From positions 16,554,001 to 16,618,000 of the forward strand of contig OZ193909.1 in NCBI GenBank assembly GCA_964276515.1: a stretch of 64,000 bases of DNA, read 5' to 3'. The translations under genes were made by a program, and so were the position numbers. This document shows positions 1,481-31,830 of this stretch, one piece after another (position 1 is the first letter of the stretch; the number at the start of each line of letters is the position of its first letter). This DNA is from Gordius albopunctatus. Taxonomy: Eukaryota. Below the pieces are notes generated by a model. The model was given only the letters and a program-made list of their open reading frames with translations, was not told the DNA's origin and made no database searches.

Positions 1481-2563
1481 CTCCCTATTTGACGTCAATC
1501 TTCCACATAATGCATATAGAATTAGACCTTTAGATAGTGTTCATTTCTTTTTAAATTTAAAATAGAAAAGAGAGTTATAAAATGTTCCAAGCAAAACATT
1601 TATATAGGCACTTACAGGACAATTGTTTTAATAAAATATACAATGCAATAAAACTTTTTATACTGAATGTGAGACCTCAATAAAGTTTTTTATATGGTTT
1701 CAGTAGCTTTAAATATCATGATCTTAAAATATATATCCCGAACAGACGTAATCTTAAATCAATTTAAAGCCTGCTCACAAATTTTATCGAGGTTTTATGC
1801 TGAGCTCAATTCTACCCGGGGAGTCACCAGGGCGTCAGGCCGTCCACGCTTTAATATTATAGGTGATCAAAATTTTATAATATAATTCCTGAAAAATCAT
1901 CGCAGGTTTCCAATTCACTTCCACCCTATAGTAAATGCCTTCGGTCCTTCTACCACTAATAAGAATCTATCATGCTCCAGTAATACTATTGATGCCCAGC
2001 AGACTGATTGAGGTAGATGTATCAAGTAATCACTCTTAAGTCCAAAGTACTCTAGTTTTTTTGTTTTGATTAGATATTTTGACGTTCTCTACTTTTTGCT
2101 ATAACATTATTACTAAAGCGTTCTGTTCTAAAGTTAGGATATTCATATTTAAGAATTAAGTTTTTTCTTCAAGTTTCTAGTGTGGCTTTGAATAATAAAG
2201 GGATTCTTTTTTCTATGAAAAGAGTCGCTATTTTAATTAATTGTGTTTATTTGATTTATATTATCATAAAAATAATATTTAGCACCTATAAACGAAGTGT
2301 AAGCGTGTTGCGTCCATTGACTTAATTGCCTTACTTACATTACCTTACTACTTCGCAACGTTAATTGACCAATCAAGCATACCTCGCGGAGACACAACTA
2401 AATTGATTTATTTATATCTCGCGGAGGCACCACTAAACTTGATTGATTTATTCAATTAATTCACGAGTATATAAAAGGAGTTTAAAACTCTTTTTACTCA
2501 CTGGCTTTTCTTCCAACGATTTAATTTATATTATACAATAAAGTAATTATTACTTAATCCTAC

Positions 2564-2746
2564 TGTTTAACTTGAATTGTTTTTCCTTTGATATGATGTA
2601 TTTTCAATAGTTATTATTTTTAACAGCTGATTCTATATCTTTTTTTAATCTCTTCAATATGTTACAATAGCGATAATCTACCTTTTATATAATACAACTT
2701 ATAATATTATATTAATCCCCGCTTGGAAAGGTTACAGATCCTTACA
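2564..2746 (-). repeat. 3' LTR of element A
   Basis: Direct repeat of 8213-8395; on - it begins TGTAAG immediately after the polypurine tract and ends AAACA next to the TSD. Confidence 0.95.
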
Positions 2747-3478
2747 CCTCATTCTTTCAAATTGAGGGCCCACCAGGTCCGTACTGTCCCGCCCTGGAGT
2801 ATTTACTAATAACGTCATCTCTTCCTCCGGGCTGACCACGACCTGACTGTTGTTCCTTGTAACCACTTCCACACGTACCGGTTCCGTCGTCGTGTACGTG
2901 ACTACCGGAGCTATCGACATCACTGACGCTACCGATTCTACCGGCGGTACCGTCCTCTCCTGTCTTGCTTGCCTGAACGGGATTCTTCGCCTACACATCG
3001 GCATTCGGTGCCAGCTTCGGCATCCCCTGCAAAAGGCTCTAGTTTGCCTTATAGCTGTCGGCTGTCCTGCCTGTGGATAACGGGATGAGCTCCTTCTTTC
3101 TTCCGCCCTCGCCACGGGACGTATCTGGCGATTTTGGGTGTTTTGCGTTGTATTCGCTCGGGCTGCACGCGGGGTCACATTCTGACGCTGCACCCGGTCA
3201 ACTCGTCCAGCTAAGCTCCGGGCTTGGCCACGGTGTCTGGGTACCGTGTTGCTCTGCCTACCCGTATTAGGCCTAGCCGCTTCCTGACGTGTTGTCCGTC
3301 TATGTCTACCCGCCGCCCTTTCCTCCGTACGGGTGTTTTCGTGGCGCACGCTAACGTAGGGTTCCATTCTCCGTCGCTCTCGGACCTCAAACACTATCGG
3401 TCTCGGTTTCCCCCTACGTTCGTGGTCTAGTGCTCTCAAACGCACCTCTACGATCACCCATTCCGTTCGATATTCCAT
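2732..3478 (-). CDS. Element A ORF3: 248-aa Arg/Gln/Thr-rich protein with a C-x2-C-x3-H-x4-C knuckle, in the env position
   Basis: Open 248-aa ORF between the pol stop and the 3' LTR; motif CRGCRSWHRMPMC; pyrimidine tract + AG directly before its ATG; ends 15 nt inside the LTR. Confidence 0.75.
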   Translation of the reverse strand: MEYRTEWVIVEVRLRALDHERRGKPRPIVFEVRERRRMEPYVSVRHENTRTEERAAGRHRRTTRQEAARPNTGRQSNTVPRHRGQARSLAGRVDRVQRQNVTPRAARANTTQNTQNRQIRPVARAEERRSSSRYPQAGQPTAIRQTRAFCRGCRSWHRMPMCRRRIPFRQARQERTVPPVESVASVMSIAPVVTYTTTEPVRVEVVTRNNSQVVVSPEEEMTLLVNTPGRDSTDLVGPQFERMRCKDL

Positions 3479-3501
3479 CTAGATAAAATATAAAAAGATT
3501 A

Positions 3502-6500
3502 CTATATTAATCTAGAGCGTAACTGTTCCACGTGTCGCACGTGTCTACCCGGAGAAGCTAGCACTTCTATCTCGTACATTTTAGTACCTTTCCGAGATAG
3601 GATCTTAGCTTCTAACCATTTTTCTTTCCCTATATAATTACGCGCCCACACAGTATCACCGATTTTAAATTTAGAATCGCCCTGTGATCTGGTGTCTGAT
3701 TGCGCTGCCTGTAACATCGTATCCACTGGCGTGTGTGGTAAACGGCCCAGAAATATCTCGCCAACTGGTTGTCGAGAAGGGAACCTTGGTGCGACGTTGT
3801 GGTAAAGTCGATAAAGCCAAGTTCCGTCCTTTTCAACCTTAGCGTTCTTCAACCATCGTTTCACCACTGCCACGTGTCTTTCCGCGAGTCCATTCGTACT
3901 CGGATGATACGGAGGGGTAAGTAAATGCTGTATTCCCCATTTACTACAAAATTGTTTGAACTCGACGCTTGCAAAAGCTGTGCCGTTGTCGGATATAATC
4001 TTTTTCGGTATACCATACGCACCTGCAAGATTTTTTAAGAAATCGACCACTACTCCCGTAGATAACTTGCTCACTTGTTTATATTCAACCCAACTCGAGT
4101 GCGCATCTACGAGAATAATATATCTTTTTCCTTCAAAATCAAAGAAGTCCAGGTGTACTCTTTCCCAAACTTGTGTTGTGGACGGCCATCTGGCCTTTTT
4201 GTCGTGTCTTGGCGTCCTGGCAAGTTTTCCGCATTGCCCGCATTGTCCCACGAACAAGGTAATATCCCTTGATATCTTGGGCCACCAGACGTGTCTTTTC
4301 GCTAGACCTTTCATCTTGGCTATACCCGTATGACCTGCATGAAGTAATTCGAGTACCTGAGGTCGCAGCACCAACGGAATTACTATATTTTCGTTGCGTA
4401 GTAACACGTTGTTGTTGACCTCGAGTTCGTTTATTAAGCCTCGATAAGTCGATGGTAACGTTTCTAGTGTACTCTTCCCCGTCAAGTAATTTAACACCAA
4501 AATTAATTCTGGATCCTCTTGTACTAATTTGGCAAGATCGACATCTCCGCAATTTTGTGTTATTACGTTCACTTCAGCGAAGTTTTCGCCTTCTAACTCT
4601 TCGAAAGTTAGGTCATCATTATCGTTTCCTAGTCTCGATAATGTGTCTGGCAAGTGATTTGATTTACCTTTTCGGTATTTTAATGTTGCGTTGAAATTTC
4701 CCAGCGCCAATAACCATTTTTGCAGTCTCGGACTTAACAATAGATCCCTGTTGTCCTTTGCAAAAAGTGATACCAGCGGTTTATGGTCGGTAAAAATATC
4801 GAAACTTCGACCAATTAAGTATTCACGGCAACGGGTCAAACTCACTACTACCGCCAAAGCTTCCTTTTCAATCACCGAGTAATTAAGTTCAGCTTTGGTA
4901 AATTTTCGTGAAAAATATAGTATTGGGTGTTCCTCCTGATTGATCACATGCAACAGCACACCGCCTACACCTAGCTGTGACGCATCCACCGCTACGGCTA
5001 ATGGTAGATCGGGAACAAAGCATGTCAGAACAGGACCTTTCGTTAAAATATTCTTTAATGCGTCGAAAGCTTCCTGCTCCTTGTTCCGCCATATAAATCT
5101 TACTTTGTCCGTCGTCAACAAGTATAAAGGTGCCGCTATTTCCGCGATGTTAGGCATAAACTTGTTGTAGTAATTCACCGACCCAAGAAAGGATAGTGTC
5201 TCTTTCTTATTCTGTGGTGGTCGCATTTTAAGGATCGCATCCACTTTGCTTTGTAAGGGACGAACGACTCCATTACCCAATTGATGTCCCAAATATTTTA
5301 GTTCCGTCACTCCTATGACACATTTACTACGTTTTACCCGTAATCCTCGTTCCTGGATTCGTTCTAACACTGCCAACAAGTTATTATCGTGCTCCTTCAT
5401 TGTAGCTCCCACTACAAGAACGTCGTCTAAGTAGTAAAACACACCAGAAAGACCTTGAAATATTGATGCCATGGTCTTCTGAAACACGGGCGCACTTAGG
5501 CTGAGACCGAAGGGCAGTCTTTTAAACGCAAACAAGCCTAAGGACGTGTTTATTGTGGTTAACTTCGACGAGCGGTTATTTAACTTGATCTGGAGGTAAG
5601 CGTTAGCAAAATCCAACTTACTAAAATATTTGGCACCCTTCAGATTTGCGAAGATCTCTTCTATTCTGGGTAGGGGGTACTTTATTTCTACTATCCACGG
5701 GTTAAGAGAAACCCTGTAGTCCGCGCAAAGGCGCAAGCTGCCGTCTGGTTTTTTTACTGGCACCAGTGGCGTAGCCCATTCGCTATATTCCACCGGCTCG
5801 ATTATCCCTTGCTCTATCCATTGAAGCAAGATGGCTTCTACTTTCTCCCGCCAAACAAATGGTATCCTTCTCGCTGGCCAAAACTTTGGTACAGCGTCTG
5901 GCTTCAGTAGGATATCATACTCGTATCCCTTTAGGCATCCAAGCTCGTCTATAAAGATAGACGTGAACCTTTCCAACATCCATTGTAGACTTCCTGACCA
6001 ACCACTTAGGGACCGGACTGCATCGCCACCCATAAGATTACGAGTGTCGGTAGAAGATGTCGGTTGACCCCCCGACTCACTTTTTACCGATAGTCCGTTT
6101 ATTTCAGCTCCGAGAGAGGTAGACTTTAGAGCCCAAGCCATAAATGGCATCCTTAAGGGGTTCCTACCTGCTCCGCCGAAATCTTTTTCACCCATTTCCT
6201 GTGGCCCACTACATTGGATTTTTTTGCATAAGCCAAACCACTTGTTCAACGGCCCTATCATTTTAAGCCATTCCCACCCCAAAATCGGTCTAATCTCCAC
6301 GGACGTGATATATAGGGGTAAAGTTAACTTATTATTCTCGATAATAATTTCTACCTTTACCTTACCTATGACCTTAATTTCCGACCCATCCACTTGTTTT
6401 ATTTTAAGGTTCGGTCTTTCCCAGTGTCTATGGGGCCACAATTTTTTAAATTTGGTTACCCCCATTAGAGTTATGGTCGCACCCGTATCCATAAGAAATT

Positions 6501-7422
6501 CCACCTTCCTATTATCCACCCATAAATTAACTAACGGAATTTTATTTAAATGCAACCCTCCCATTAACCCTGCCAAACTTACACTATTATCCTTACTTTT
6601 ATTAATTACATTATCCCTACTAACTTCATTTTCTGCTATTTCCTTAATAAAACTTTCGTTAAACCTTGCGTTTTTTTCTATTCCGTTTTGATTCTTATTA
6701 CCAAGTGTTCTGAATACTTCAACCTCATTCTTTTCTTTCCTTACTTTTAAAGGAAAGCATTGCAAGGAGGGCCTACTATCTACTGGTAATTTTATGATTG
6801 TGGTTGACAGGGACCTTAAATCTTGTTTTTTAGGCCAAGATTTTATAGTAGAGGAGAATGCTCTAGAGGAGGGATATGCATGTGGCATATGTCTCTTATT
6901 AAAAGGCAAAGGGGACAATAACGAGGGTATTTTTATTTTAGGTTTAAAAGAGGGATATACATATGGTCTATTCCCTTTTAAATATTTAATTACCAGAGAA
7001 GCCGATAATAACGAGGGTATTTTTATTTTATGTTTAGTGAAAGATAAAGTAGTAGGGCATGTGCTCATCGAAAGGGACATTAAGGGAGGGATTAATGGTT
7101 TATCAAAGGGAACCGCTTTGATTAGGGATGGTAAAGTTATATTACTATTTTCAGTAGGGGGGATGGTTGGAATTCTACGCGGTTTTATATTTGATTTACG
7201 CCCAAGTTGGATAGGTTTAGTTGAGCTTAGAGTAATCTCTTTAAGGCGGTTGAAGCTATTTATTGGGGTAGGGGTTTTTGTTTTATTTATTAGACCAGGG
7301 GGGGTTGGAATATTTACTAGGGGAGGGGATATTGTGCTGTTTAGTAGGGGAGGGGTTTTTGGGCTTTTTGTTTTGGGAGAGGATTTTGGGATATTTAATT
7401 TGGGCGGGGATTTTTTTATCAT
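3502..7422 (-). CDS. pol: Element A Pol polyprotein (Pro/Lys/Ser-rich N-terminal region, aspartic protease, RT, RNase H, integrase)
   Basis: Motifs: protease FLMDTGAT; RT WATPLVPVKKPDGSLRLCADYR and YYLDDVLV; RNase H VDAS, EKEALAV, TDHKPL; integrase H-x3-H...CGQC, HLDF, SDNG, GLAERH; C-terminal SH3-like segment. Domain order is Ty3/Gypsy. Confidence 0.97.
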   Translation of the reverse strand: MIKKSPPKLNIPKSSPKTKSPKTPPLLNSTISPPLVNIPTPPGLINKTKTPTPINSFNRLKEITLSSTKPIQLGRKSNIKPRRIPTIPPTENSNITLPSLIKAVPFDKPLIPPLMSLSMSTCPTTLSFTKHKIKIPSLLSASLVIKYLKGNRPYVYPSFKPKIKIPSLLSPLPFNKRHMPHAYPSSRAFSSTIKSWPKKQDLRSLSTTIIKLPVDSRPSLQCFPLKVRKEKNEVEVFRTLGNKNQNGIEKNARFNESFIKEIAENEVSRDNVINKSKDNSVSLAGLMGGLHLNKIPLVNLWVDNRKVEFLMDTGATITLMGVTKFKKLWPHRHWERPNLKIKQVDGSEIKVIGKVKVEIIIENNKLTLPLYITSVEIRPILGWEWLKMIGPLNKWFGLCKKIQCSGPQEMGEKDFGGAGRNPLRMPFMAWALKSTSLGAEINGLSVKSESGGQPTSSTDTRNLMGGDAVRSLSGWSGSLQWMLERFTSIFIDELGCLKGYEYDILLKPDAVPKFWPARRIPFVWREKVEAILLQWIEQGIIEPVEYSEWATPLVPVKKPDGSLRLCADYRVSLNPWIVEIKYPLPRIEEIFANLKGAKYFSKLDFANAYLQIKLNNRSSKLTTINTSLGLFAFKRLPFGLSLSAPVFQKTMASIFQGLSGVFYYLDDVLVVGATMKEHDNNLLAVLERIQERGLRVKRSKCVIGVTELKYLGHQLGNGVVRPLQSKVDAILKMRPPQNKKETLSFLGSVNYYNKFMPNIAEIAAPLYLLTTDKVRFIWRNKEQEAFDALKNILTKGPVLTCFVPDLPLAVAVDASQLGVGGVLLHVINQEEHPILYFSRKFTKAELNYSVIEKEALAVVVSLTRCREYLIGRSFDIFTDHKPLVSLFAKDNRDLLLSPRLQKWLLALGNFNATLKYRKGKSNHLPDTLSRLGNDNDDLTFEELEGENFAEVNVITQNCGDVDLAKLVQEDPELILVLNYLTGKSTLETLPSTYRGLINELEVNNNVLLRNENIVIPLVLRPQVLELLHAGHTGIAKMKGLAKRHVWWPKISRDITLFVGQCGQCGKLARTPRHDKKARWPSTTQVWERVHLDFFDFEGKRYIILVDAHSSWVEYKQVSKLSTGVVVDFLKNLAGAYGIPKKIISDNGTAFASVEFKQFCSKWGIQHLLTPPYHPSTNGLAERHVAVVKRWLKNAKVEKDGTWLYRLYHNVAPRFPSRQPVGEIFLGRLPHTPVDTMLQAAQSDTRSQGDSKFKIGDTVWARNYIGKEKWLEAKILSRKGTKMYEIEVLASPGRHVRHVEQLRSRLI

Positions 7423-7524
7423 TATTTTGGGAAGGGATTTTTGGATAATTATTTTGTGAGGGTGGGGGACTGGACTTAATGATTTCAGATAATTATTTAC
7501 CGGTGTAGCAGCCCTCCCTGGTTG

Positions 7525-7869
7525 CTATTCTTTCTCCCCCTTCCTGCACCTACAACTACAGGTGCTAGGGCCAGGTTCTCCCTCTCTAGATACCTGTCTT
7601 TCCCCTTTAAAATTATTTTCACCTCGGGGTCTTTCTTGCCATACCCCACGCCCCTCTTTAGGACAATTCCTTCTTATATGGCCCCTTTTATGGCATAAAA
7701 AGCATTTTGGCCCATTTTTATATTCTATTGCACATATTATTTCATTATTCTTTTTAACCAACCAAACTAAAACCATGACTATTAACATTAAAACTATTAT
7801 AATTATATTTTCGCGTATACAATTAAATACTATGTTAATACTAAAAGTAGGTGGCTTAGTACCAAACAT
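7525..7869 (-). CDS. Element A ORF1: 114-aa protein with a hydrophobic helix and CCHC zinc knuckle (minimal Gag-like)
   Basis: Hydrophobic run IIIIVLMLIVMVLVWLV followed by KK; canonical C-x2-C-x4-H-x4-C knuckle CFLCHKRGHIRRNC; its TAG stop is in frame with pol. Confidence 0.8.
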   Translation of the reverse strand: MFGTKPPTFSINIVFNCIRENIIIIVLMLIVMVLVWLVKKNNEIICAIEYKNGPKCFLCHKRGHIRRNCPKEGRGVWQERPRGENNFKGERQVSREGEPGPSTCSCRCRKGEKE

Positions 7870-8199
7870 TTTAAAAAGTAAAATCTATTCAAATATCAAT
7901 GATGACAAAAGCAATTTTATTAATGCTATACGTAAAACCCTAAAAGAACAAATTAAATAAAATATAAGTACTATAAAGATAATTAATAAGTAGTTATTCA
8001 TATTATTTATGTAACTAAATATTATTAATTCGAAAAAAATATAATATTCAAACCAAAAATTCAGAAAAACTATTTATTCATAAATTTCATAAACTATTTG
8101 AATAAAACTTACACTCATTAAGTTGTATGTCGGATCCACGTATTTTTGTTTCGAATTTCGCACGGCTTGTTTTCTACTAACGGCTATGGGTACTTCTGT

Positions 8200-8210
8200 T
8201 TCTGACACCA
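8200..8210 (-). promoter_or_regulatory. Primer-binding site of element A (tRNA-Leu type)
   Basis: TGGTGTCAGAA two bases after the 5' LTR CA end; complementary to the ...TTCTGACACCA 3' end of eukaryotic tRNA-Leu. Confidence 0.8.
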
Positions 8211-8212
8211 AT

Positions 8213-8395
8213 TGTTTAACTTGAATTGTTTTTCCTTTGATATGATGTATTTTCAATAGTTATTATTTTTAACAGCTGATTCTATATCTTTTTTTAATCT
8301 CTTCAATATGTTACAATAGCGATAATCTACCTTTTATATAATACAACTTATAATATTATATTAATCCCCGCTTGGAAAGGTTACAGATCCTTACA
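8213..8395 (-). repeat. 5' LTR of element A
   Basis: Direct repeat of 2564-2746; contains TATATAAAAG and a downstream ATTAAA on the - strand. Confidence 0.95.
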
Positions 8396-8494
8396 CCTAC
8401 ATAATATTTACTTCTCGAAAGTGGTGACCCACCCTTGTTATACGCCTCCTTCTACCCTACCCTTACCCAACCCTGGTTATACGCAACCTTGTAA

Positions 8495-9304
8495 ATGGAT
8501 ACCAACCAAGTTGATGATGTCCAAATTAAATCGGAAAACGCTATATTTTTCAAATTGCCCCCCTTCAATCGTATAAATCCCCGATTATGGTTTGTCCAGA
8601 TAGAAGCCCTTTTCTCGATTCGACGAATAACATCTGAATCTAGCAAACTTGGATACGTGATAGAATGCCTCCCACAAGAAGTCACAATAGAGATCCAAGA
8701 TTACTTGGAGAATCTACAGGCTGAGGCCCCGTACACTACCATCCGGTCAGCTATCATCGACCGCACAACAAAATCGGACTTAGCACGATTCCACGACCTA
8801 CTGTCCAACGTGGAATTGGGCGATCGTACACCCTCACAACTCCATAGACACATGAAAAGCCTCCTGGGTACCGCCAAAATGGACGACATCATTTTAAAAC
8901 AACTGTGGTTGGAAAACCTGACAACCAGCATCTTGGCGATCTGTGCAAGTGACCAGACGTTAGTCAAGCTAGCTGAAACAGCTGATAAAATCGCGGAAAC
9001 GTACCATACGCCGCAAATATCCAACGTCGCCCCTGCCACACAGAGATCCCGCAACGATATTGAGACGCTCAGAGACATGGTCAATAGACTGAGCGTGAGC
9101 ATCGAGACATTACGGCAAGAGGTCAGTCAGAAAAATTGTTTTCGGTCGAGAAGTAGGTCTACATCAAGGCGATTTCGATCCCCGTTTCAACCCCACGCAG
9201 ACTTTCCCCAGGATTGGTGTTGGTATCACCAAAGATATAAGGAAAAGGCCACGAAATGCCGACAACCTTGCAATTATATCCCGATTTCCTTGTCAAACCC
9301 ATAG
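8495..9304 (+). CDS. gag: Gag of element B (CsRn1-like, CHCC zinc motif)
   Basis: N-terminus KLPPF...PRLWFVQIEALF, LGDRTPSQL, RSRSRS tract and CWYHQRYKEKATKCRQPC (CHCC), typical of CsRn1-clade Gag. Confidence 0.85.
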   Translation: MDTNQVDDVQIKSENAIFFKLPPFNRINPRLWFVQIEALFSIRRITSESSKLGYVIECLPQEVTIEIQDYLENLQAEAPYTTIRSAIIDRTTKSDLARFHDLLSNVELGDRTPSQLHRHMKSLLGTAKMDDIILKQLWLENLTTSILAICASDQTLVKLAETADKIAETYHTPQISNVAPATQRSRNDIETLRDMVNRLSVSIETLRQEVSQKNCFRSRSRSTSRRFRSPFQPHADFPQDWCWYHQRYKEKATKCRQPCNYIPISLSNP

Positions 9305-12300
9305 GCCTGCCAGAATCCGCCACACCCGGTTCAGGCCATAACATCAATCGCTTATTTTTTATTTTTGATAAATTAACGAAATTTTGTTTTTTAATAGACA
9401 CTGGCGCGGAAATAAGTGTCATACCACCCCCACGTAACCACCATCTCACCCCCTCACACATCCGCTTCCAAGCTGCAAACAATAGTTCCATACTGACCTA
9501 TGGCCAGAAATCAATGGAACTGGACCTTAGCTTACGGAGAAGTTTTCATGGGTGTTTACCATCGCCGACGTTAAGACACCGATCATCGGGGCTGATTTTT
9601 TAAATCATTATAACCTCCTCGTTGATATACGCCGCAAATGTTTATTAGACCCTAAGACTACTTTAAAGTCTTATGGGCGATATATTGATTCGAGCTTGTA
9701 CAATTTACAACTCGCAATAAAGATCGATTCACCGTATTTTAAAAATGTTTTAAAAGATTTCCCCGAGATTTATACCCTTCCAAATTAAAGGTCACGCGTA
9801 AGCCACCAAGTAGTCTACCACATACGTACACTATGACCCCCCGTTTATGCCAGACTTAGACGCTTAGACCCTGTCAAGCTAAAAATTGCCAAACAGGAGT
9901 TTACTCATATGCTCGAACTCGGCATAATTCAACCCTCAGAAAGCTTCTGGAGTTCTCCATTGCACATGGTTCCGAAAAAAACTCCTGGAGATTGGCGACC
10001 ATGTGGAGATTACCGAGCCCTTAACGTTATAACGATACCGGACCGTTACCCCTTGCCACACCTGCACGATTTCTCACTTAACCTAGCCGGCACAACCATC
10101 TATACAAAAATACATCTAGTCAGAGCTTACCATCAAATACCCGTAGCCTTGGAGGACATCGCAAAGACTGCAATAACCACACCTTTCGGTCTTTATGAAT
10201 TTTTTCGAATGCCTTTCGGTTCGCGAAATGCTGCTCAAACATTCCAACGCTTCATTGATCAAGCTCTCCGTGGTCTCAATTTCGCCTTCGCATATTTGGA
10301 CGACATTTTGATCGCAAATACATCAACTAGTGAACATTTAGACCACTTACGTCAAGTTTTTACTCGATTAAGAGATTTTGATATAAAGATCAACCTGGAC
10401 AAGTGCCAATGGGGACGTTCCTCTCTAGATTTCCTAGGACATCAAGTTTCCTCACAAGGTTTAACGCCAATATCGGAAAAGATCTCAGCCATCAAGAATT
10501 TCGCCACCCCGACCACTATGACACAACTACGTCGTTTCGTGGGAATGGTAAATTTTTACAGGTGTTTTATACCCAACTGTGCACGACATCTACAACCACT
10601 GACGGATCTCCTCAACGACGCAAAAGGACCTTTGGACATGACGCAGAGCGCACACGACGCATTCCACAAGATTAAAATAATGCTCGATAAAATTTCGACC
10701 CTTAATCATTTAGTTCATGGTGGCAACATCTCTAATACAACCGACGCGTCAAACTCTGCCATTGGAGCCGTACTACATCAGACCGTAAAAGGGGAAATCA
10801 GTCCTTTATTCTTTTTCTCCCTGAAATTGAGCAAAACACAAACTCGATACAGTACATTCGGGAGAGAACTGCTAGCAATTTATCTTTCAATTAAACAGTA
10901 CCGACATATTTTAGAAGGTCACGATTTTACAGTTTTTACTGATCACAAACCGTTAACTTACACTCTCAATTCTAAACCCGATAAATACTCGCCGCGCGAA
11001 ATACGACAATTAGACTATATCTCCCAATTTACTTCAAATATACAGTTTATTAAAGGTAAAGCGAATATAGTAGCAGACACTTTGTCCCGAATCGATATCG
11101 ATTCCATACAACAACCAAACTCCACCCAACAGCCGAACACATCCCTCACAGAAATAATTGCTATGACACAAAAACAAGAGCAATATTAACTAGAAGAGCT
11201 CGAAAGTCTTAAACTGGAACAACGCGTAATTCCAGGTACAAATTTAACTATTACGTGCGATACATCTGCATCGACTTCGAGACCTTTAGTACCTAGGACG
11301 CTCCGACGCATAGTTTTTAATCAACTACAAGGTCTTTCTCACCCAGCCTTATGCCCAACACTTAGACTAATTGCCCAACGTTTCGTCTGGCCGGGAATGA
11401 ACAAAGATGTACGCGATTGGACAAAGCAATGCATTGCGTGTCGAAAATTCAAAGTAAATAGACACGTAATATCAACCCCAGGCACGTTCGCTGAACCAGA
11501 CGCAAGGTTTAGCCACGTACATGTAGATCTCGTCGGACCCTTACCACCTTCTAACGGCCACATTTATATTTTTACTGCCGTTGATCGTTTCACCCGATGG
11601 CCGATTGCAATTCCCATTATTGACGCAACAGCCGAAACCGTTACACGCACATTTTTGACATACTGGATAGCCAACTTTGGTGTTCCGGCGACATTAACCA
11701 CGGACCGGGGACCGCAATTTCAATCTGCCCTTTTTAAACAATTATCTATTTTATTAGGGTATCATCATATCACTACGACAGCTTACCATCCACAAGCCAA
11801 TGGGATGGTAGAGCGATTTCACCGATAGCTCAATCATGACAAAAGGTGACGTTACCCGTTGGTCCGAACTTATTCCCCTTGTACTCCTAGGGATTCGCAA
11901 CACCATCAAGGAAGACCTTGCCTATTCAAGCGCGGAGTTGGTATAGGGTACTTCTTTACGACTCCCAGGAGATTTTTTACAACCGTCGGATCGCGACATA
12001 AACGACGCCGATTACATCCAACGCCTTAGACAGCAGTTTGATGATGTACGATTCACACCTTCCAGACCATTGAACATCAAACAACAATTGTCCGAAAATT
12101 TATTTACATCAACTCATGTTTTTATAAGGACTGATCGGCTACGCAAAGCCTTGGTTCCCCCCTATGAAGGACCTTTCAAAGTGATTGAAAAACATACTAA
12201 ATTTTTTATCATAGACCACAAGGGCAGGAAAGACACTGTCTCAATCGATCGATTAAAGCCAGCTTTCCTCGAGCCTAAGGTTGATAACCCGAATTCATCA

Positions 12301-12351
12301 GTTGACTCAAATGCACCCAAACCAAACAATCACTCAACGGCTATACAATAA
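9256..12351 (+). pseudogene. pol: Disrupted pol of element B (PR-RT-RH-IN)
   Basis: FLIDTGAEISV, YLDDILI, TDAS, ELLAIY, TDHKPL, HVDLVGPLP, TDRGPQF, NGMVERFHR and PYEGPFKV are spread over several ORFs broken by frameshifts and stops (~9550, 9788, 11189, 11828). Confidence 0.92.
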
Positions 12352-12737
12352 AGTAATTATTACTTTATCCTACTAATACTTACTTCTCGAAAAGCGCATT
12401 GAAAAAATTGATACCCGTAAGCCTTCGTATTCAATTTTCGGTCTGCTTATGGTTGAGTTGGCGTTAACCCAATTGACAGTATACACATCCAAGAATTTAT
12501 TGATAATTTGATAATCGACAAGAAGTAACTTTAATAATAGAATCAAAGTAGCGATTCGATAGGTTATAAGGAAATATGGTAATACAATTGACGGGGAAAG
12601 GTTTTGGGAGTTATCCGAGGCCAGAATAATAATAATAATAGTGTGTCCTCTAACTGGAAACATGGCCTTTTTATAATACCAGGATTTCCTGATCCCAGCC
12701 TGTTGCTTATTAGGAGAAAATGTTATTAAATTAACCC

Positions 12738-19400: not shown

Positions 19401-22400
19401 CCGGCTTTTAACTTTCTGACTTGCAGGTTCTAGTACAATCCCCGGAGAGGACAAAAATTTTTTTTTTAATTAAATTAATATTTTGTTATTGTTAATACCA
19501 TTGATAATATGACTTTTTGACCTTCCGCTGGCTACTTACCAATGAAAAAAATGACCATTGACCAAATAAATCGAATTTTTTCCCCTTTTTGAAATTACCC
19601 TATGTCCTCCCGTAGAAGGGCCTATGCTTCTACTGATATGGGTCCCTGTGCCCCTACAAAAGCCTATGCCCCTACTGATGTGGGTTCGAATCCCGGAGAG
19701 GACAAATTTTTTTTATTAATTAAATAGAAAATTTGTATTAATAAAAACTAATTATTTTGCATTTAATACCCCCCTATAGCCATTCTCGCCCATAAATTGC
19801 ATAGCAAATATGCTACTTTTATACAGAGTATAGATGAGTCGTTCCCCCTTCCCTCCTGCATCTCCCTCCCCACTTCCCTTCCCCCCTCCACCTTCCTGCG
19901 AAGGCCGAAGGCCCGAGTTTGTTAATATTTTGTTTTTTGATAGTTAAAACCGTTTTTTTCTGTTTATTTCAACTCTTGAGATTAATCGCTGGTATATTAT
20001 GCGTCTGAAATGAAAATCTGCTGTGAATTCGAAATTTAGACACGGCTATGTTATAACCCGTACAAAGATTTTCATCCGATATTAAGACAAGCTATAAGAA
20101 GGCCTTGTATTTTTTGTCTTGCGTTCTTCAGGGAGGCCCAAGGAGTTTTAATTAAGATTAGAAGAGGCAAATAAATCAATGCATGTAAAGTCCCATTTTA
20201 AAAAGCCATTTTACCGTGGGATTAGTGAGAAACCGTCAGGACGCATTCGACCTTCAAGGGGAGGAACCGAAGGTTAAAATATAGAAGGATTTTGGGCCTT
20301 TTTAAGGCCTCACTGGATAATGAAATTGATTTTAGAGTGCCCCGAGTGTCTAAATTTATATAGCCAACAATGTTTTATGGGTGGCGTACTTCTTCATCAA
20401 TTGGCACGTTGTAATTTTTACAGAGTTGTTAAGGAGCGCGCACCGGATTTCCGGTGCGACGTGCTGGTGCGCGTACTTTTTTATAACGAAGAGCGAGTGC
20501 GGGTGCGCGCACCTGATTAAGTCGGTGCGGGTGCGCAATTGCGCTCCTGTTTTGCTCACATTAAGAGTTTTACAATTTATTAATTTATTTGAAATTGTAT
20601 TATATCGCATATTTCACAAATTAAATTTCTACTGATTTACTATATATATAACATACATCTATGTTCCTGATGGAGAAGATAACAAGGTGGGAAATTGGTT
20701 ACTATCGATAGACAATAAAAATAATCTAACCGCGATATTTCACATTATTCACGTATTTACTTTATCAATCAACGATTAATCTTTACACTTTTGAACCTAT
20801 CTTTGCTATCGTAAGTTTAATCACATATAATGATCTAATTACAATTAATTTTAATTATTTATTTATATTATTTATTGTATTGGTTGTCATAGTACTCCTT
20901 ATCCAATTTTTTACTCTTTTCTTTTCTCACTGCTTATATATAACACCTTAATATGATAGTGAATTATGGAAATAGAAGAATCAAGCATAAATATAGCAAG
21001 CACATCATGCATGAAAATTTTTCCATTTCCAAAATATGCTAATATGTTTAAACTTAAAGATAATCAGCATAATACACTTAATTTTGAGGTGCAATGTCTT
21101 TTATGCAATGCCAAACTCAAGACTTCCTCTAGATCTTGTTTCAATTTGACTAGTCATCTAAAGGTAATCTTGTTACTTATTTTATAAAAAATTTATAGAG
21201 ATTTCATAGGACCTCTTTAGAAAATATAAAATATGACAATAAGAGAAAGAAAGTCTGTATTAATAAAGAAATTAAAAGGGTTGTGTGATTTAGATATATG
21301 CCAACCATTAGTGAATGCAATTATACAAGGGATCGTAAGAAGTTTTTATATATATAATAAACTTTAAATTATTCCTTGTATTTAAAAAGATTCCCAAATT
21401 TATATGACGATAATGTTATTGCAGCAGCAATTCTCAACCCTTTATTTAAAACAAATTTCAGTTGGTGCTATCAAGATGAAAACAAACCTATATTAAAAAA
21501 AAAATTCGATTAATTGAAAGTCAAATCACGCCAGGCGTGGAGGAAAAAGAAGTTTATGAACGTAAAGACTTTGATGATTTTTTCGAAATAAAATTAAAGA
21601 ACATAAAACAACTTTTCAGATGAACAAATTCTTGAGTGAAGGAAATTGTTGAAATATATCCAAAGTTGGTAGAAGATATCATAATTCAACGGTTTTATCT
21701 CCTTCCAAAATGCGCAAAGATTTAGCTAATGATTCCATAACCTATAAATCGATATGTAAATTTATAAACAGCTATTATGTCTGCTTAAAATGTAAAACTT
21801 ACTAAAGAATACTCACGAATAAATACTCTTTCTTCTTCTTTGAACCTAGATAAGCCTATTTCATCAAACAGATCATACAAATCGTATTTTTTGTTATCAA
21901 GCAATTTATTTAATAAATTCACAGCCTCATAATAACTATTACACCTAGTTTTATTTGGGGTAATTAAATATATTCCAATTTTCTCTTTATATATATCAGC
22001 CAACCGAGTGGACATATTTTGCTTATTCCACAAATTTTGGCATTTGTTAAATGTTGAACGAAATATTTTTTTAAAATTGTTATTCAAAAATGCTTCCTTG
22101 ATATCAACACTGGCTACCAAATTAAGACAATGACAAGCACAGCGCCCATGTTTTGGCAAATGTTCTGATTCTTCTTGAGGACAATTACTTATTATATCTT
22201 CAATATCCGCACTCTCTAAATCTTCATCTTGTTCCTGAACATCAGAATGTATTGTCTCTTCTTCATACACCCTATAACATATGCTTTATTTTTTTAAATA
22301 TACATGAAGGCTTTTACAAAGTTGTATCCATTGTCGATAATGGTTTGAACAACTTTGTTGTGAATTTTGAATTGCTTATGCACATCAATGATGTTCTTAG

Positions 22401-25400
22401 CAATCACATCATAGGTTTGCTTTCCTTGTATCTTTTTAAGACACAATCCAATTGATTTCCTCTCTAAGGTGCCTTGATTAATCCAGTGTGCTGTTAAGCC
22501 TAAATAAGCTCTAAATAAATTAGAATATAAAAATATTAGACTTTTTATAAATCATTACCTTCTACCAGTACTCCAGCAGTCTCAGCACTATGCATTTCTT
22601 CTTTGATTTTAGCAATTAACTTATTGAACCTACAAGTGATTCTAGATGTCAATGTCTGTCGACACATGACATCAACAGGAGATTTTGAGAAAGCACTTAG
22701 AGGATGGATTATCAATAATTGAAAGAGGCTGAATTGTGTTGATGACATAATTCACCAAGGCTTTTTCCCGACTTACCTCTTTAGTAAAGTTTATAATATT
22801 CTGGTTAGATTTATCTAAGACTTTCTTTTTCTTATTGTCATATTTTATATTTTCTAAAGAGGTCCTATGAAATCTCTATAAATTTTTTATAAAACAAGTA
22901 ACAAGATTACCTTTAGATGCCTAGTCAAATTGAAACAAGATCTAGAGGAAGTCTTGAGTTTGGCATTGCATAAAAGACATTGCACCTCGAAATTAAGTGT
23001 ATTATGCTGATTATCTTTAAGTTTAAACATATTAGCATATTTCGGAAATGGAAAAATTTTCATGCATGGTGTGCTTGCTATATTTATGCTTGATTCTTCT
23101 ATTTCCATAACTCATTATCATATTAAGGTGTTATATATAAGCAGTGAGAAAAGAAAAGAGTAAAAAATTGGATAAGGAGTACTATGACAACCAATACAAG
23201 AATAATATAAATTAATAATTAAAATTAACTAATTTAATATATTTTAATGAAAATTAATTGTAATTAGATCATTATATGTGATTAAACTTACGATAGCAAA
23301 GATAGGTTCAAAAGTGTAAAGATTAATCGTTTATTGATAAAGTAAATACGTGAATAATGTGAAATATCGCGGTTAGATTATTTTTATCCAATTTCCCACC
23401 TTGTTATCTTCTCCATCAGGAACATAGGATAGCTCGCTATCTTCTAACATCATAATGGAGAACTTGCTAGGAAAAGCCTCGAGCCATTCATGTCCAGATT
23501 TACCAAACACCAAAGATCTAAGGTTGTAATGTTGTTTGGTATCTCAGCTCGAAAGGAGATAAGCAATGGGGCGCGAAACCAAACAAGTATCCCAATCCTT
23601 TTGATTTAAGGTTGGTGGTAGGGACATTTCTGGTATAACATTTAAATTCCCAAGCTCATTGAGGGAATAGGGGATTAATTTAGCGACGTTAGATTTTGAG
23701 GATAAGTGGGAGGATACAAATAAGGGGTTATAAGGAGCTGTGTGAACAAATTCCCAGGCCCCTAGATTTTGTTGGTAATGTGGCTTGTAGCCAGGTGTTA
23801 GTATCGAATGATAAGTTGAGGGTGGATTCTATGACAGATTTATGTGGGTTTCAAAATTACGTAAGATTTGTGTACGCAAAAATGCGCTTTTGGAACGGAA
23901 GCAGAATAATATTTTGGTAATATTAAAGTAGTTTTTTAATATATAAAATACATGAGGGGCGGGCATAAGCATTAAGATTTCATTTTAACATTTAAAATTT
24001 TTATAGTTATGGTCGAGATAACTTCTTAACTATTCTGGACCGCCTATTTGTAGAGCCTAGTAAAAAAATCTCGTTCTTTTCAAGGCGTATAAAAGATGCA
24101 AAGAATGGGTGGATGTAAGTTGCTGCCAGAATGAATTTCACATTTGTAGCGTATAAAGATAGGTTATGTTTTATATAATATTTGATGATGTTAAGAGCTT
24201 TGGTCAGCTCTTCCGGGGTTCCTGATAGGGTGGCATCGTCGAGGTACCATAGGTTTAACCTCAAATTGCATTTGTCTATTAATATTTTGATGGCCATAAA
24301 AAATAAGGGGGGAGGCAAGAGGGTCCTCCTGTTATATCCCCTCAGCTGAATCAATAAAAAATTGTCCAAATTTTAAGAATATATAGTTCGCATATTGAGG
24401 AAAGGCATCGATGAAAGTACTAATAAAGGAATTTCGATTGTTAAAGGCGATTTGAAAGTGTAATTTTATGAAAGACTCGCTGGGTGGTATATTTAAGGGT
24501 CAATCTAGCAGCATGCGTAGCTCTTTCGCATTCCCCTTTAACAGCGAGTAGATAGATAAATTATGCTTGATTAATATGCATAAACTTTAGATATGATTCT
24601 CCAAGAAACTCCGCCGATGGCGATCGGTCTTAAAGTTTTGTTCTGTTTTTGAATAACAAGTAACTTGGTCCCAAAGATTATTGGCCATACTTCTTGAGGA
24701 ATGTTGCCATTAATAATTAAGTTGCAAAACTAAGTTAGTGCAGCGAGTTGAATTGAAGAATTGATATTTTATATTTTCTTGAAGATAAATTTCTTTGATA
24801 CCATCCAAGCCTGCTGCAGAGCCGATTGGGATGGATAGCTTCACTAATTTCCGAGGATTCTAGGATTAAGTTGGATGGCGTAAGGGGAAAGCAATACTGG
24901 GACAAATTGGGTATTTGCAAGAAGTTGTTCATATGATTCCTGACTAGGGGTTAAAATTGGATTGCTCTCCTCAGTCTTCCATGGCCCCTTTTATGTTAAA
25001 TGAATGAATTTTCCTGGATATCTTTCTGATTTTAACCCCTATTCAGGGATCATATAAACAACTTCTTACAATATACCCAAAACATTTGTCCCAGTATTGC
25101 TTCCCCCTTAATCAATCCTCATAAATTAGTGCTATCCATTCCTTCCCAATTGACTCTATGATATCAAACCAACTTATCTTAAAGATCTTATTAAAATTGA
25201 AAATATAAATTCCTCAATTTTACTCGCTGCGCTAACTATATTTTGTAATTTAATTGTTAATGGCAACATTCCTCAAGAAGTCCGACCAATAAACTTTGGG
25301 GTCAAGTTACTTGCTATTCAAAAACAGAACAAAACTTTAAGACCGATCGCCATCGGCGGAGTTTTCGGAGAATCATATCTAAACTTATGCAAATCAGTCA

Positions 25401-27996
25401 AGCATAATTTATCTTCATCTCTAATGCCTCATCAGCTAGGATCCCTAGTTCAGGGGGGATGCGAAATAGCTAAGCATGCTGCTAGATTGACCCTTGAAAT
25501 ACCAAACAACATTACATCCTTAGATCTTTGGTGTTTGATATGTAAATCTGGACATGAATGGCATAAGGCTTTTCCCAGCAAGTTCTCCAATAGGGTGTTA
25601 GAGGATTGTGAGTTATACTCAATATAGCACTACACCGAATCAAATACAGCAAAGCATATTACTCTAAAAAATGCTACCTGCCAGGTGATAAAGAAGCACG
25701 CCACCCCTTACACTGCAGGTTGAATAAATTTAGACACTCGTGACACTCTTAAATGAATACCAATATCTAGTCAGCCCTTAAAAAGGCCCAAATTCCATCC
25801 ATACACTAACCTTCAATTTCATCCCTTGAAGATCGAACGCTTCCTGACGATTCCTCACTTGTTCCATGGAAAAACAGTCTCCCTCTAAAATGATATTTTA
25901 CATGCATGACTTATTTGCCCCCTCTAATCTTAATTATTACCCCATGGCCCTCTTGGAATCTAGTATTTTTATCCCAATGGTTTCCTCCTGCTCAAAATCT
26001 TATGGAAAATGGCGCTAGTTTTATTCAAAGAGAAGGCGATCCCCTCCCTCTAAATATTCCCCCCGAATTTTTGTTGAAACAATCAATAGCTATCTAAATT
26101 GCAAAATTTAATTTGAAATCTTTTTTGGATTTCTTGCCTCTTGTGAAAGACGGAGATAAAGACATATTATTTAATAATGTTTTTTAAAATTAGTATTATA
26201 TAATCTAAGTATTTAATATTATGCTCAGATATATAATCAATAAACTTACTTCAGTAATTCCCCCCCCCCGGCAAAAATTTGAAAGGTTTTTTGATTAATA
26301 ACTAAATTTAATGGGTTAAAATAATATATTTTAGTTACATCAAAGACTTTAAGATACTTATAAAACCTAGAAACATAATATATACATATAATTCTTTTGA
26401 TTTAAATTTTGACAAAATTCATTGTAAAATTTCCGAATATGATTGTAAAAATTGGTATGGAAAAAAACTAGTTTGAACATTTATATTCCGTGAAAACACT
26501 AGACCGCCCAGGAAGTAGATAACTAAGCGATTATTATAATGTTTTTCATTCTACATAATATTAATACTTTTATAATATTTGTCTAAAATTTTCTGCTAGA
26601 ACCCATCACGGTTCAACTAAATTGCCTGGCAAGGCCAGCCAAAACCCTTTAATTGTCCAATTCACTAATGTTGTCCGAACAGAGGGGCCCAAAATGACGA
26701 TTTTAAATTTCAAGAATTAATTTTGTCCTATTTTCAAACATTTTTGATCTGATTCTAGAATTTTAATAAATAGAAAGGCGATAAAAAAATAGTAAACTAT
26801 TTAAAAATTTTTATCATGGTGCCCGCCCAGGCCTACTTAAAAATCTCAATTTAGAACGTTAACCTGCTCGACCCCTTAGCCGAGAGGGCCCAGTAGCGAG
26901 CCCGGCTTTTTGGTTGTTTAATTTTTATTTTTAATTACAAATAAAATGTAAATAAATTTTTTAGCCAGCTTTCCCCCCCCCCCCCCCTTCGAGAAAATTC
27001 TGACTACGCGCCTGACTTTATCTTAAAAAATAATCCAGCCTATAAAATACTTTTCCAATTGTCTTACGAATTGAATTTTCTAATGACCTATAATAATGCT
27101 CTTGAGAGTATTGTTTAAATCAAATACTTTGCAAATTCTATTAAACTTTATAAGATAAATTGTTTTTAATTTTGATTAATAAACTTAGGATAATAAAATA
27201 CTTTTAAATTATACTAGACCGCAGCCCTTGGAGAAAAATTTAAATTTTCCAGGTCACGAAGTTTATACACTGGTGCACAGGCATTCAAATATCGTAGCCC
27301 GAGCCGAACAACTGTTATATACATACTTAAAGTGCGTTTTGTAAAAAATATGTGAAACTTTAGGCGGCAAAAGGGATTATAATCCACGACCTGTGAATGC
27401 TTTACTAAGACTTGCGGTTTTGGCTTTCATTTATTTAAAAAGTTTGATAAATTTGTTAATTCTGACGTAAAGGCGCTATCATATAAAAATTATGATGGCA
27501 CTCTAAAGGTTCACAATGAATAAATTATTAAAAATTTAATTTTTGACGATTTATTAAGAACGTTTTACACTTTTCTTGTTACTTTATAGGACCAGCCATT
27601 AAATCACAATTTTAAATATATTAATTAATTGTCGATCCAGAGCTTTTATAAAGTTAAAGTATTTGAACTTTTTTTTTCATTTAGCCCTAACTCTTCTGAT
27701 CAACCACCTAAATCGAAAAAAACGATCGAAATTCAGCTTCTCAAGTATGTTAATTTTTGTTCTATGTTTGATGTTAAGATTTAACTAAAAAGGTTTATTT
27801 CAATATTTAGGCAATATGTGTTAACAAATTTTGACATTTATTTAATTTTAGGTGCAAAGAGGAGCTGGAAGAAATGCTGATGACGATATTTCCAGTCTTC
27901 GAAACGATTTACGCCCCAAGAACTATACACGAATGGAAGGACACTTTCATAAAACCTCACATAAATAGGATCGAAAATGTTCTCGCCAATCATTGA
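13452..27996 (+). CDS. HEXD: Hexosaminidase D-like glycoside hydrolase family 20 (multi-exon)
   Basis: Exons read by eye: 13452-13524, 13561-13629, 13703-13757, 13826-14023, 14290-14454, 15080-15263, 15786-15923, 16805-16937, 17958-18131, 27218-27331, 27685-27744, 27852-27996. Motifs VHLDLKGAPP, EYEDMFPY, PLIQTFGHVEF, HIGADEV (catalytic DE), WDDMLR, WGASAFKGA, TGWQRY, CELLP, FPG and TIHEW. The true start exon was not identified; an in-frame ATG lies at 13568. Confidence 0.92.
16201..16550. mobile_element. PIF/Harbinger-type MITE family 2, copy 1
   Basis: Degenerate TIRs GGGCTTGTCTCAATATCGGA / TCCGATATTAAGACGAGCG; homologous to 44305-44587 and 58125-58473. Confidence 0.8.
17161..17471. mobile_element. 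Probable non-autonomous DNA transposon with GC-rich CGGGY subterminal repeats
   Basis: Short TAGATTTG / CAAATCTG ends, CGGGC/CGGGT repeats at both ends and an AT-rich core, resembling the hAT element at 50287-52243; no clear TSD. Confidence 0.45.
19233..20094. mobile_element. PIF/Harbinger-type MITE family 2, copy 2, carrying a nested DINE/HINE-like element
   Basis: TAA-GGGCTTGTCTTAATATCGGA ... TCCGATATTAAGACAAGC-TA-TAA; colinear with 44305-44587 once 19333-19922 is removed. Confidence 0.85.
19333..19922 (+). mobile_element. DINE-1/HINE-like (Helentron-associated) non-autonomous element, copy 1
   Basis: 5' TTGCTATACAATTTATGGGC with an asymmetric inverted copy GCCCATAAATTGCATAGCAA (~19788-19807), GTCC microsatellite near the 5' end, 3' stem-loop GGCCGAAGGCC, T-rich ends; second copy at 50933-51700. 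Confidence 0.75.
20421..23427. mobile_element. Rearranged hAT transposon: two convergent partial copies with ~600-bp inverted arms
   Basis: Probable terminus CAGAGTTG at 20421 followed by GTGCG subterminal repeats. BED-finger first exon on + (20966-21187) and on - (22887-23108), differing at 3 of 73 residues. Transposase core on - (CACHCLNL, TPNKTRCNS; 21785-22270). Confidence 0.85.
25040..26250 (+). mobile_element. Decayed CRE-like non-LTR retrotransposon, copy 2 (internally deleted)
   Basis: LRPIAIGG, PHQLG..VQGGCEIAKHAAR, GHEW, LEDCEL and LVPWKN fragments; reverse complement of segments of copy 1, including the 3' end. Confidence 0.8.
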
Positions 27997-31091: not shown

Positions 31092-31830
31092 CTATTCTAA
31101 TATATCATCATCGAGGGGATCTTCCAAAATTGGCCAAGAATTGGCGAACGATTTAAAATTGTACTTGACTATAAGAATACCAAGTCGTTGTTTAAGTAAA
31201 AAGGATACCGAATGTTTAGACGGGGGAGAACGTCTTCCTACATCTTTAAAAAAGGCTAAGGCCTGTTTGCCAAAGGTGCCTGAACACGAAGCAGCCAATA
31301 GAATAAAGATTTTTGAGGATAATAGGGCTTTGTATTTATTAGTTCTCCGCCCCTCTGCGACAGCTAAAGAATCATTGTTGTAGTTAGAGGGGGCAAATAG
31401 GTCAATACACGTGAAGTCCCATTTAAGGTGAAAACCATTGCTCCATGGGACTAAAGAAGATCCATCAGGACGCATACGTCCCTCCAAGGAAGGGTCCGAT
31501 GCCTCCAAGATGGATGGGATATTAGCTCTCTTCAGTGCACTTTGAATTAAGGTATTGGCCTTATTGTGTCTAACATATTTTAATTTGTTTGCCAGTCAGT
31601 GTAAGGGATGCCTGGCTTGCTCGTCTACGAGTATGCTGCAATTTCGGCAAATAAATAGCTTCGAAAATTTCACCCCTAGCCTGAGAGCTATGGAGTACGA
31701 AAGTTCCGAGTCCTCCAGCATCATCCCGGTGAGACAGCTTGGGTAGACCTCTAGCCATTCGTGACCTGAGCCATCAAACAAAAACGACCTTAAATTAGAA
31801 CACTGACTTGCATCGCTACTCGAAATTAAA
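31092..31830 (-). mobile_element. CRE-like non-LTR retrotransposon 3' fragment, copy 3 (Zn finger + restriction-like endonuclease)
   Basis: GHEWLEVYPS, CRNC...HPLH, RMRPDGSSLVPWSNG.HLKWDFTC and AEGRRTNKY; typical RLE domain of CRE-type elements; 5' truncated. Confidence 0.85.

Follow-up and report, generated by a model that had tools for sequence, protein, structure and literature searches.

The Gag capsid is regarded as indispensable to retrotransposons with long terminal repeats (LTRs) and to retroviruses. Elements of the rotifer Mag family encode gag and pol in a single open reading frame (ORF) with two adjacent knuckles (PMC5408684). Tos17, a Copia element of rice, has no gag and still transposes; it was proposed to use the Gag of another element (PMC3977881). 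In the MDG1 group, the FAST-like sORF2, a small single-pass membrane protein with an amphipathic ectodomain motif, is encoded at the 5' end of Gypsy elements (PMC11952523). UAG-CARYYA is the readthrough signal of the tobacco mosaic virus (TMV) type (PMC2194720, PMC4132726), and a leaky stop sets the excess of structural protein in other retroelements (PMC2194720). These descriptions follow the accessible parts of the five papers. The element studied here lies at 2564-8395 on the minus strand of a 64,000-nt window from Gordius albopunctatus (contig OZ193909.1, positions 16,554,001 to 16,618,000). It is a multi-copy Ty3/Gypsy element without a detectable capsid. In our preferred reading, which is plausible but held at less than even confidence, its first ORF (ORF1) would replace Gag as a membrane-tethered protein, and reverse transcription would run in a ribonucleoprotein bound to the membrane. 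The architecture is real and unusual within Ty3/Gypsy; as to mechanism, replication without a capsid and the use of a borrowed one are the two main readings. All positions refer to the window, and the features are collected in Table 1.

The LTR element is complete. As stated in the original prediction, its LTRs are identical (0/183 differences), the target-site duplication (TSD) CCTAC is perfect, a primer-binding site (PBS) and a polypurine tract (PPT) are present and Pol is unbroken. The Pol frame (7524-3502, minus strand) runs over 1,340 codons without a stop and has the protease DTG as residue 346. The identical LTRs and the intact CCTAC pair also support the recent integration that had been proposed. 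The PBS-like TGGTGTCAGAA presumably matches tRNA-Leu. The LTRs of the TG...CA type, a TSD within 4-6 bp, the PBS, the PPT, the Gypsy-related reverse transcriptase (RT) and the Pfam domain order protease, RT, RNase H, integrase (PR-RT-RH-IN) are those of Ty3/Gypsy (Metaviridae). The capsid-coding gag of autonomous members was not found, with distant capsids as the residual limit of that statement. Identity with Troyka was ruled out, because that element, in the accessible part of its description, has a 3-bp TSD and CG...CG termini, unlike the 5-bp TSD and TG...CA ends found here. A second full-length copy is absent from the 64-kb window.

The capsid was sought by spacing, profiles and structure models. 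Within a set of 121 related proteins, 75 have a Gag part ahead of the protease motif. In these, a median of 217 residues precedes the first knuckle and a median of 61 separates the last knuckle from the protease, and 68 of the 75 have two knuckles. In the element, only 508 nt separate the LTR from the knuckle, and the distance from knuckle to protease is about 390 residues. A capsid profile made from 36 relatives gave at least 114.9 bits on all 35 held-out relatives and at most -6.2 bits on the six frames of the element. It also reached at least 30 bits in 125/125 polyproteins, training set included; these were taken from 261 proteins as those of up to 1,600 residues with at least 250 residues before the protease motif. 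The profile likewise missed the more distant DUF7041 Gag of the host element into which this one is inserted, which marks the limit of its sensitivity. At E up to 1, ORF1, Pol and ORF3 matched no Pfam capsid family; the host Gag, in contrast, scored 76 bits on DUF7041. Profile, Pfam and the short spacing thus agree with the original claim of no recognisable capsid Gag, as does the ORF1 model without a capsid bundle. The profile search for a capsid fold in ORF1, the pre-protease region and ORF3 found none; structure prediction, made from single sequences without alignments, covered ORF1 and ORF3.

Upstream of the protease, ORF coordinates and motifs bear out the layout described at first, namely just a 114-aa ORF with a hydrophobic helix and a CCHC knuckle, followed by some 320 aa of low complexity. 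The top 19-residue hydropathy of ORF1 was 2.87 (residues 20-38), a value matched by 15 of 3,000 random open frames with equal base composition and by 48 of 3,000 residue shuffles. Of 71 Gag regions from relatives, a single one had a hydropathy of at least 1.8, and the maximum was 1.86. The amphipathic stretch at residues 10-20 showed a helical moment of up to 1.94. The AlphaFold model (mean pLDDT 57) contained one confident helix at residues 9-52 and no capsid-like bundle, and a fold search with this model gave no matches at E 0.001 or better. In a word-based protein search with ORF1 the only candidate was not accepted, and the ESM Atlas gave nothing usable. The knuckle scored 19.3 bits on Pfam zf-CCHC, marginally below the cut-off of 20.8, and the relatives' Gag profile aligned it to their second knuckle (15.5 bits). 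ORF1 starts with M-F-G, without a Gly2 myristoylation motif, and has just two lysines after the helix. Four listed variants from two organisms fell into the helix; two were silent and two changed a hydrophobic residue to Ile. Right before the leaky stop, the ORF1 C-terminus (7528-7560, minus strand) has three Cys in five residues and then Arg-Lys; speculatively, this cluster is possibly a lipid-attachment site.

The stop of ORF1 is in frame with Pol, and its CARYYA context is unique among the 352 sense-strand stop triplets (local chance about 0.003). ORF1 in the role of Gag fits such a leaky stop ahead of Pol, as this arrangement sets the structural-protein excess elsewhere. A stimulatory hairpin past the stop was rejected, the downstream structure not being significant (z 0.28). 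TAG as a sense codon was rejected as well: eight long frames contain 136 CAA/CAG codons but no TAG in frame, and four of them end in TAG. The pre-protease region is basic (54 K+R vs 15 D+E) and contains internal duplications of 81 and 90 nt. Its 320 codons are free of stops, whereas the two remaining frames of the sense strand hold 35 and 39. Together with the CARYYA at the ORF1 stop (1/352), this favours an evolved layout over decay, as had been argued. On the opposite strand, a frame at 6068-7459 (plus strand) is open over 207 and 255 codons with one stop between them; the 255-codon part has no Pfam match, and the frame probably mirrors the codon bias of the sense strand. The spacing from protease to RT markers is 238 aa vs 161-171 in the 17 listed relatives with both motifs. 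The linker thus exceeds that of relatives by about 70 residues; its listed variants were non-silent in 3/3 cases, and of its listed indel sets two preserve the frame and one does not.

ORF3 contains 49 Arg (20%), and its frame is open against 17 and 13 stops in the other frames. It carries a CX2CX3HX4C knuckle, a feature additional to the original prediction, which was recovered in 0 of 50,000 shuffles. Among the 90 relatives with a knuckle match, 30 have their first knuckle spaced in this way, and the relatives' Gag profile aligns the ORF3 knuckle, weakly, to their first (4.2 bits). ORF1 and ORF3, two proteins free of a capsid, each retain one knuckle. In the ESM Atlas the best score for ORF3 was 0.77, and zf-CCHC clusters in two of the three rows listed provide a lead. 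Among PDB sequences there was no match at E up to 10, and the ORF3 model was poor (mean pLDDT 39.9). A donor AGT/GTAAGT at 8112 and the acceptor at 3479 would put the leader ATG-AGT in frame with ORF3. This splice is a prediction, because one random join in three keeps the frame and the motifs are not unique. Of the three coordinated expression signals proposed before, the readthrough context stands out as one in 352 stops; splice donor and acceptor are present at the level of non-unique motifs, and readthrough and splicing are both predicted. A leader intron 8112-7940 was rejected, as its acceptor G is altered throughout the depth listed for run X3 (see below). The leader (7870-8118, minus strand) is 76% AT and holds four ATGs upstream of ORF1, so that ribosomes would have to reach ORF1 by leaky scanning, by reinitiation or through internal entry. 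A hydrophobic frame of 38 codons upstream of ORF1 was rejected as a gene, since 3/3 of its listed variants are non-silent.

In the mechanism that we prefer, ORF1 would insert into a membrane, knuckle and basic tail toward the cytoplasm, and would bind the genomic RNA, tethering the element's RNA at the membrane. Through the leaky stop, ORF1 would be made in large excess over a rarer ORF1-tether-Pol fusion, a ratio which is normally that of Gag, and ORF1 would gather this fusion alongside. The protease could then free RT and integrase from the 320-residue basic tether, and ORF3 from spliced RNA may act as a soluble nucleocapsid-like chaperone. Reverse transcription would occur in the membrane-bound ribonucleoprotein, where a self-made shell would not be needed, and would be independent of a helper capsid. 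It seems rather doubtful that the element represents a whole autonomous capsid-free LTR lineage, in which the anchor-knuckle protein replaces the capsid, spliced ORF3 supplies a second nucleocapsid function and a membrane-bound or vesicle-wrapped ribonucleoprotein might pass between cells.

Contigs from four of seven listed public runs were aligned to 2000-9000 of the window at 80% likeness. Runs X1 and X2 stem from organism A, which may be that of the window, in one study, and X3 from organism B in a separate study. The bins of ORF1 and of the low-complexity region were covered in all three, which shows that the layout is common to several copies in two organisms and is not a one-off. The depth of the 5' half (bins 6680-8083) over unique flank was 12-28x in X1 and 6-11x in X2, where sums of contig depth do not equal copy numbers. 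Forty variants out of 1,212 places were listed, 30 of them within scored frames; 9/12 were silent in the RT-integrase part and 2/3 in ORF3. A contig diverged by about 15% holds the protease and sequence of the low-complexity region upstream of it. Scans of metagenome and viral contigs yielded no relative, and their sole 20-mer match had no further similarity.

Several of the data weigh against capsid-free replication. Pol and ORF3 were covered at 109-389x unique flank in X1 and 33-109x in X2, roughly a 2-30-fold greater depth than in the 5' half. Most Pol relatives therefore differ in this half, and a normal gag may be present in them; the difference reflects either fast divergence or another gag. 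The listed variants of the low-complexity region were silent in 0/5 cases, and both joints with known inserted letters in this region shift the frame (+79 in X1, -95 in X3). The frame is also broken at one protease joint and, in X3, by a 2-nt insertion near the ORF3 end; the frameshifted contigs may be decayed copies. T-rich DNA readily gives hydrophobic peptides, and the upstream 38-codon frame is hydrophobic, too. For the predicted splice, a second, identical donor motif occurs at 6582 within Pol, and by a simple score the acceptor at 3479 shares the top pyrimidine value with three others. An autonomous capsid-free LTR element has no precedent in the literature searched, while gag-less, helper-dependent ones such as Tos17 are documented.

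A serious possibility, only slightly less likely than the preferred reading and still short of probable, is that the element is helper-dependent. It would then make its own Pol and RNA-binding proteins and borrow the capsid of a co-resident Gypsy, either of a sister subfamily with a normal gag or of the DUF7041-Gag host family, and ORF1 would be a membrane tether or a small fusogen-like accessory. The gag-less yet mobile Tos17 offers a precedent in the available part of its description (PMC3977881), and the domain order of ORF1 is like that of sORF2/FAST (PMC11952523, in part). By depth, relatives of Pol and ORF3 greatly exceed those bearing ORF1. The element is nested in the 5' LTR of a host Gypsy element, 22 nt ahead of the host PBS, a nesting not included in the original prediction. 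The host Gag region reached 355-500x unique flank in X1, and the host LTR region 723-1,135x in two runs; the host is a high-copy Gypsy that encodes a capsid. The host PBS TGGTGACCC is, however, different from the PBS-like TGGTGTCAGAA of the element, and the host RT is distant (33% identical). Tos17, as far as its accessible description goes, dropped the whole gag, whereas this element retains an ORF1 coupled to Pol by readthrough, as well as a second protein with a knuckle. ORF1 lacks the Gly2 motif, and MDG1 sORF2 acts, in the accessible text, beside an intact capsid. A knuckle that is not fused to a capsid should not be able to bring RNA into a helper shell by itself, and a membrane anchor on Pol would be expected to hinder encapsidation.

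That the element is a chimeric or deletion derivative, with gag swapped for AT-rich sequence, the helix as a by-product of composition and passive amplification, is improbable. The much shallower 5' half would suit such an origin, as would the two frame-shifting joints and the five non-silent variants out of five in the low-complexity region of other copies, and ORF1 without a homologue in the word-based search. A swapped-in sequence is, however, difficult to reconcile with 320 open codons where the other frames have 35 and 39 stops, or with CARYYA exactly at the ORF1 stop. The region is moreover covered in the second organism and study (X3), and the copy diverged by about 15% has low-complexity sequence upstream of its protease, too. 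Least of all do we expect a capsid too diverged to be recognised, in ORF3, in the pre-protease region or reached via an unseen splice: the profile is blind to distant capsids such as the host DUF7041 Gag, the single-sequence models are weak and the pre-protease region lies outside the modelling, but Pfam at E up to 1 recognised the host Gag and nothing in the element, ORF3 has no PDB sequence match, and the candidate regions are rich in Pro/Lys/Ser or 20% Arg, unlike a helical capsid.

The host pol is interrupted and split over several frames. The host LTR apparently starts with TGTAAG, the same six bases as the nested element; a single insertion cannot show that the element targets the host LTR. 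Elsewhere in the window, a 602-codon open frame at 48347-50155 (plus strand) with a protein kinase domain (99 bits on Pfam Pkinase) is a gene of the host organism. Short open frames at 21785-22285, 25154-25627 and 31092-31595 look like decayed transposons by eye, the first without a Pfam match.

Table 1. Positions in the window of the element, its predicted signals and the surrounding host element.
Feature	Position	Strand	Basis or remark
5' LTR	8213..8395	-	183 nt, TG...CA, 0/183 differences from 3' LTR
PBS-like TGGTGTCAGAA	8200..8210 (read 8210-8200)	-	motif
Leader ATG-AGT, then predicted splice donor GTAAGT (8112)	8107..8118	-	motif only
ORF1, 114 aa	7525..7869	-	amphipathic stretch 10-20, predicted transmembrane helix, CX2CX4HX4C knuckle, basic tail
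ORF1 predicted transmembrane helix	7812-7756 (residues 20-38)	-	hydropathy
ORF1 CX2CX4HX4C knuckle	7704-7663 (residues 56-69)	-	motif, one copy only
UAG-CAA-CCA, predicted readthrough signal of the CARYYA type, in the Pol frame	7519..7527	-	motif
Low-complexity pre-protease region, ~320 open codons	6565..7524	-	Pro/Lys/Ser-rich, basic
Aspartic protease, DTG at Pol 346	6253..6540	-	Pfam RVP 28.6 bits
Lengthened protease-RT linker	5935..6252	-	marker-motif spacing
RT, RNase H, integrase (H2C2 and core), with motifs of catalytic type	3502..5757	-	Pfam, motifs
Predicted splice acceptor immediately upstream of ORF3 ATG	3479..3500	-	motif only
ORF3, 248 aa, Arg-rich, predicted mainly disordered	2732..3478	-	other frame than Pol; crosses PPT, ends within 3' LTR
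ORF3 CX2CX3HX4C knuckle	3031-2993 (residues 150-162)	-	motif
PPT	2747..2758	-	sequence
3' LTR	2564..2746	-	183 nt, TG...CA
TSD CCTAC (left)	2559..2563	.	
TSD CCTAC (right)	8396..8400	.	
Host Gypsy element	8401..12392, plus 5' LTR from about 2298 (2298-2563)	+	Pfam, sequence
Host Gag with DUF7041, intact, 269 aa	8495-9304	+	Pfam 76 bits
Host 3' LTR remnant, 51 nt	12342-12392	+	

A mobile family with a membrane anchor in place of the capsid and a Gag-style leaky stop would, if true, mean either that the shell is dispensable or that a retrotransposon parasite hijacks the shell of another. It would be a compact natural test of what the capsid is for, be it concentration, shielding or nuclear entry, and would provide a link to the small membrane proteins lately shown to move retrotransposons between cells. 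No Gypsy element with a membrane helix replacing the capsid was reported in the literature searched, whose scope excluded subscription journals, Repbase entries and supplements; the accessible parts of PMC2774666 and PMC13524379 likewise contain nothing on a membrane helix in the capsid's place.

Among the proteins searched, CAK9296000.1 of the horsehair worm Gordionus sp. is the sole close relative of Pol, with 47% identity over RT-integrase and 58% over RT-RNase H. It is sister to the element in both trees (FastTree support 1.0 and 0.999). Its gene model starts past the protease, so the comparison is one of Pol only; at least 202 residues without a protease motif precede the RT marker, which is compatible with a long linker as in the element. 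An exhaustive search with Pol 300-1340 gave no identity above 40% among the best 150 matches listed. A word-based search with Pol 1-520 gave one match out of 7,987 candidates, by coverage to the protease only. The closest listed matches have the domains RVT_1, RT_RNaseH and rve, and most of those with a name are K02A2.6-like. These Ty3/Gypsy polyproteins share the order PR-RT-RH-IN with the element, are about 34-41% identical over RT-integrase and have both of its knuckle types, CX2CX4HX4C and CX2CX3HX4C. They consist, however, of a single ORF with a capsid and one or two knuckles, whereas the element has no capsid but a predicted membrane helix, a stop codon and a third ORF. The K02A2.6-like set is presumably of the Mag type, and the element may be Mag-like; in the RT trees, which hold no named Mag reference, the element and CAK9296000.1 form a long-branched pair beside this set.

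The following comparisons hold for the accessible parts of the papers cited above. The layout of the rotifer Mag family is not that of the element, where one knuckle is followed by a stop. Tos17 and the element are alike as mobile LTR elements with an intact pol and no capsid, but Tos17 is a Copia element that has lost all of gag including the knuckle, and no membrane ORF, readthrough signal or ORF3 is described for it there. Murine leukaemia virus (MuLV), SIRE1, Tca2 and TMV likewise have an in-frame stop between ORFs, and the UAG-CARYYA of the element is of the TMV type (PMC2194720, PMC4132726). In the readthrough retroelements this stop lies between a capsid Gag and Pol, or between pol and env, whereas ORF1 has no capsid. 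Bdelloid LTR elements (PMC5408684) resemble the element in having a family-specific third ORF after pol. Theirs are env-like, GDSL, DEDDy, coiled-coil or transmembrane proteins beside a normal gag, in contrast to the Arg-rich knuckle protein found here. ORF1 resembles sORF2/FAST in its short ectodomain, amphipathic stretch and membrane helix, all of them predicted. In 4/6 sORF2s there is an N-myristoylation motif, and a basic patch directly follows the helix; ORF1 has neither. While sORF2 serves as an accessory and lies upstream of a gag with an intact capsid, ORF1 fills the gag slot, shares the frame of Pol and has a knuckle.

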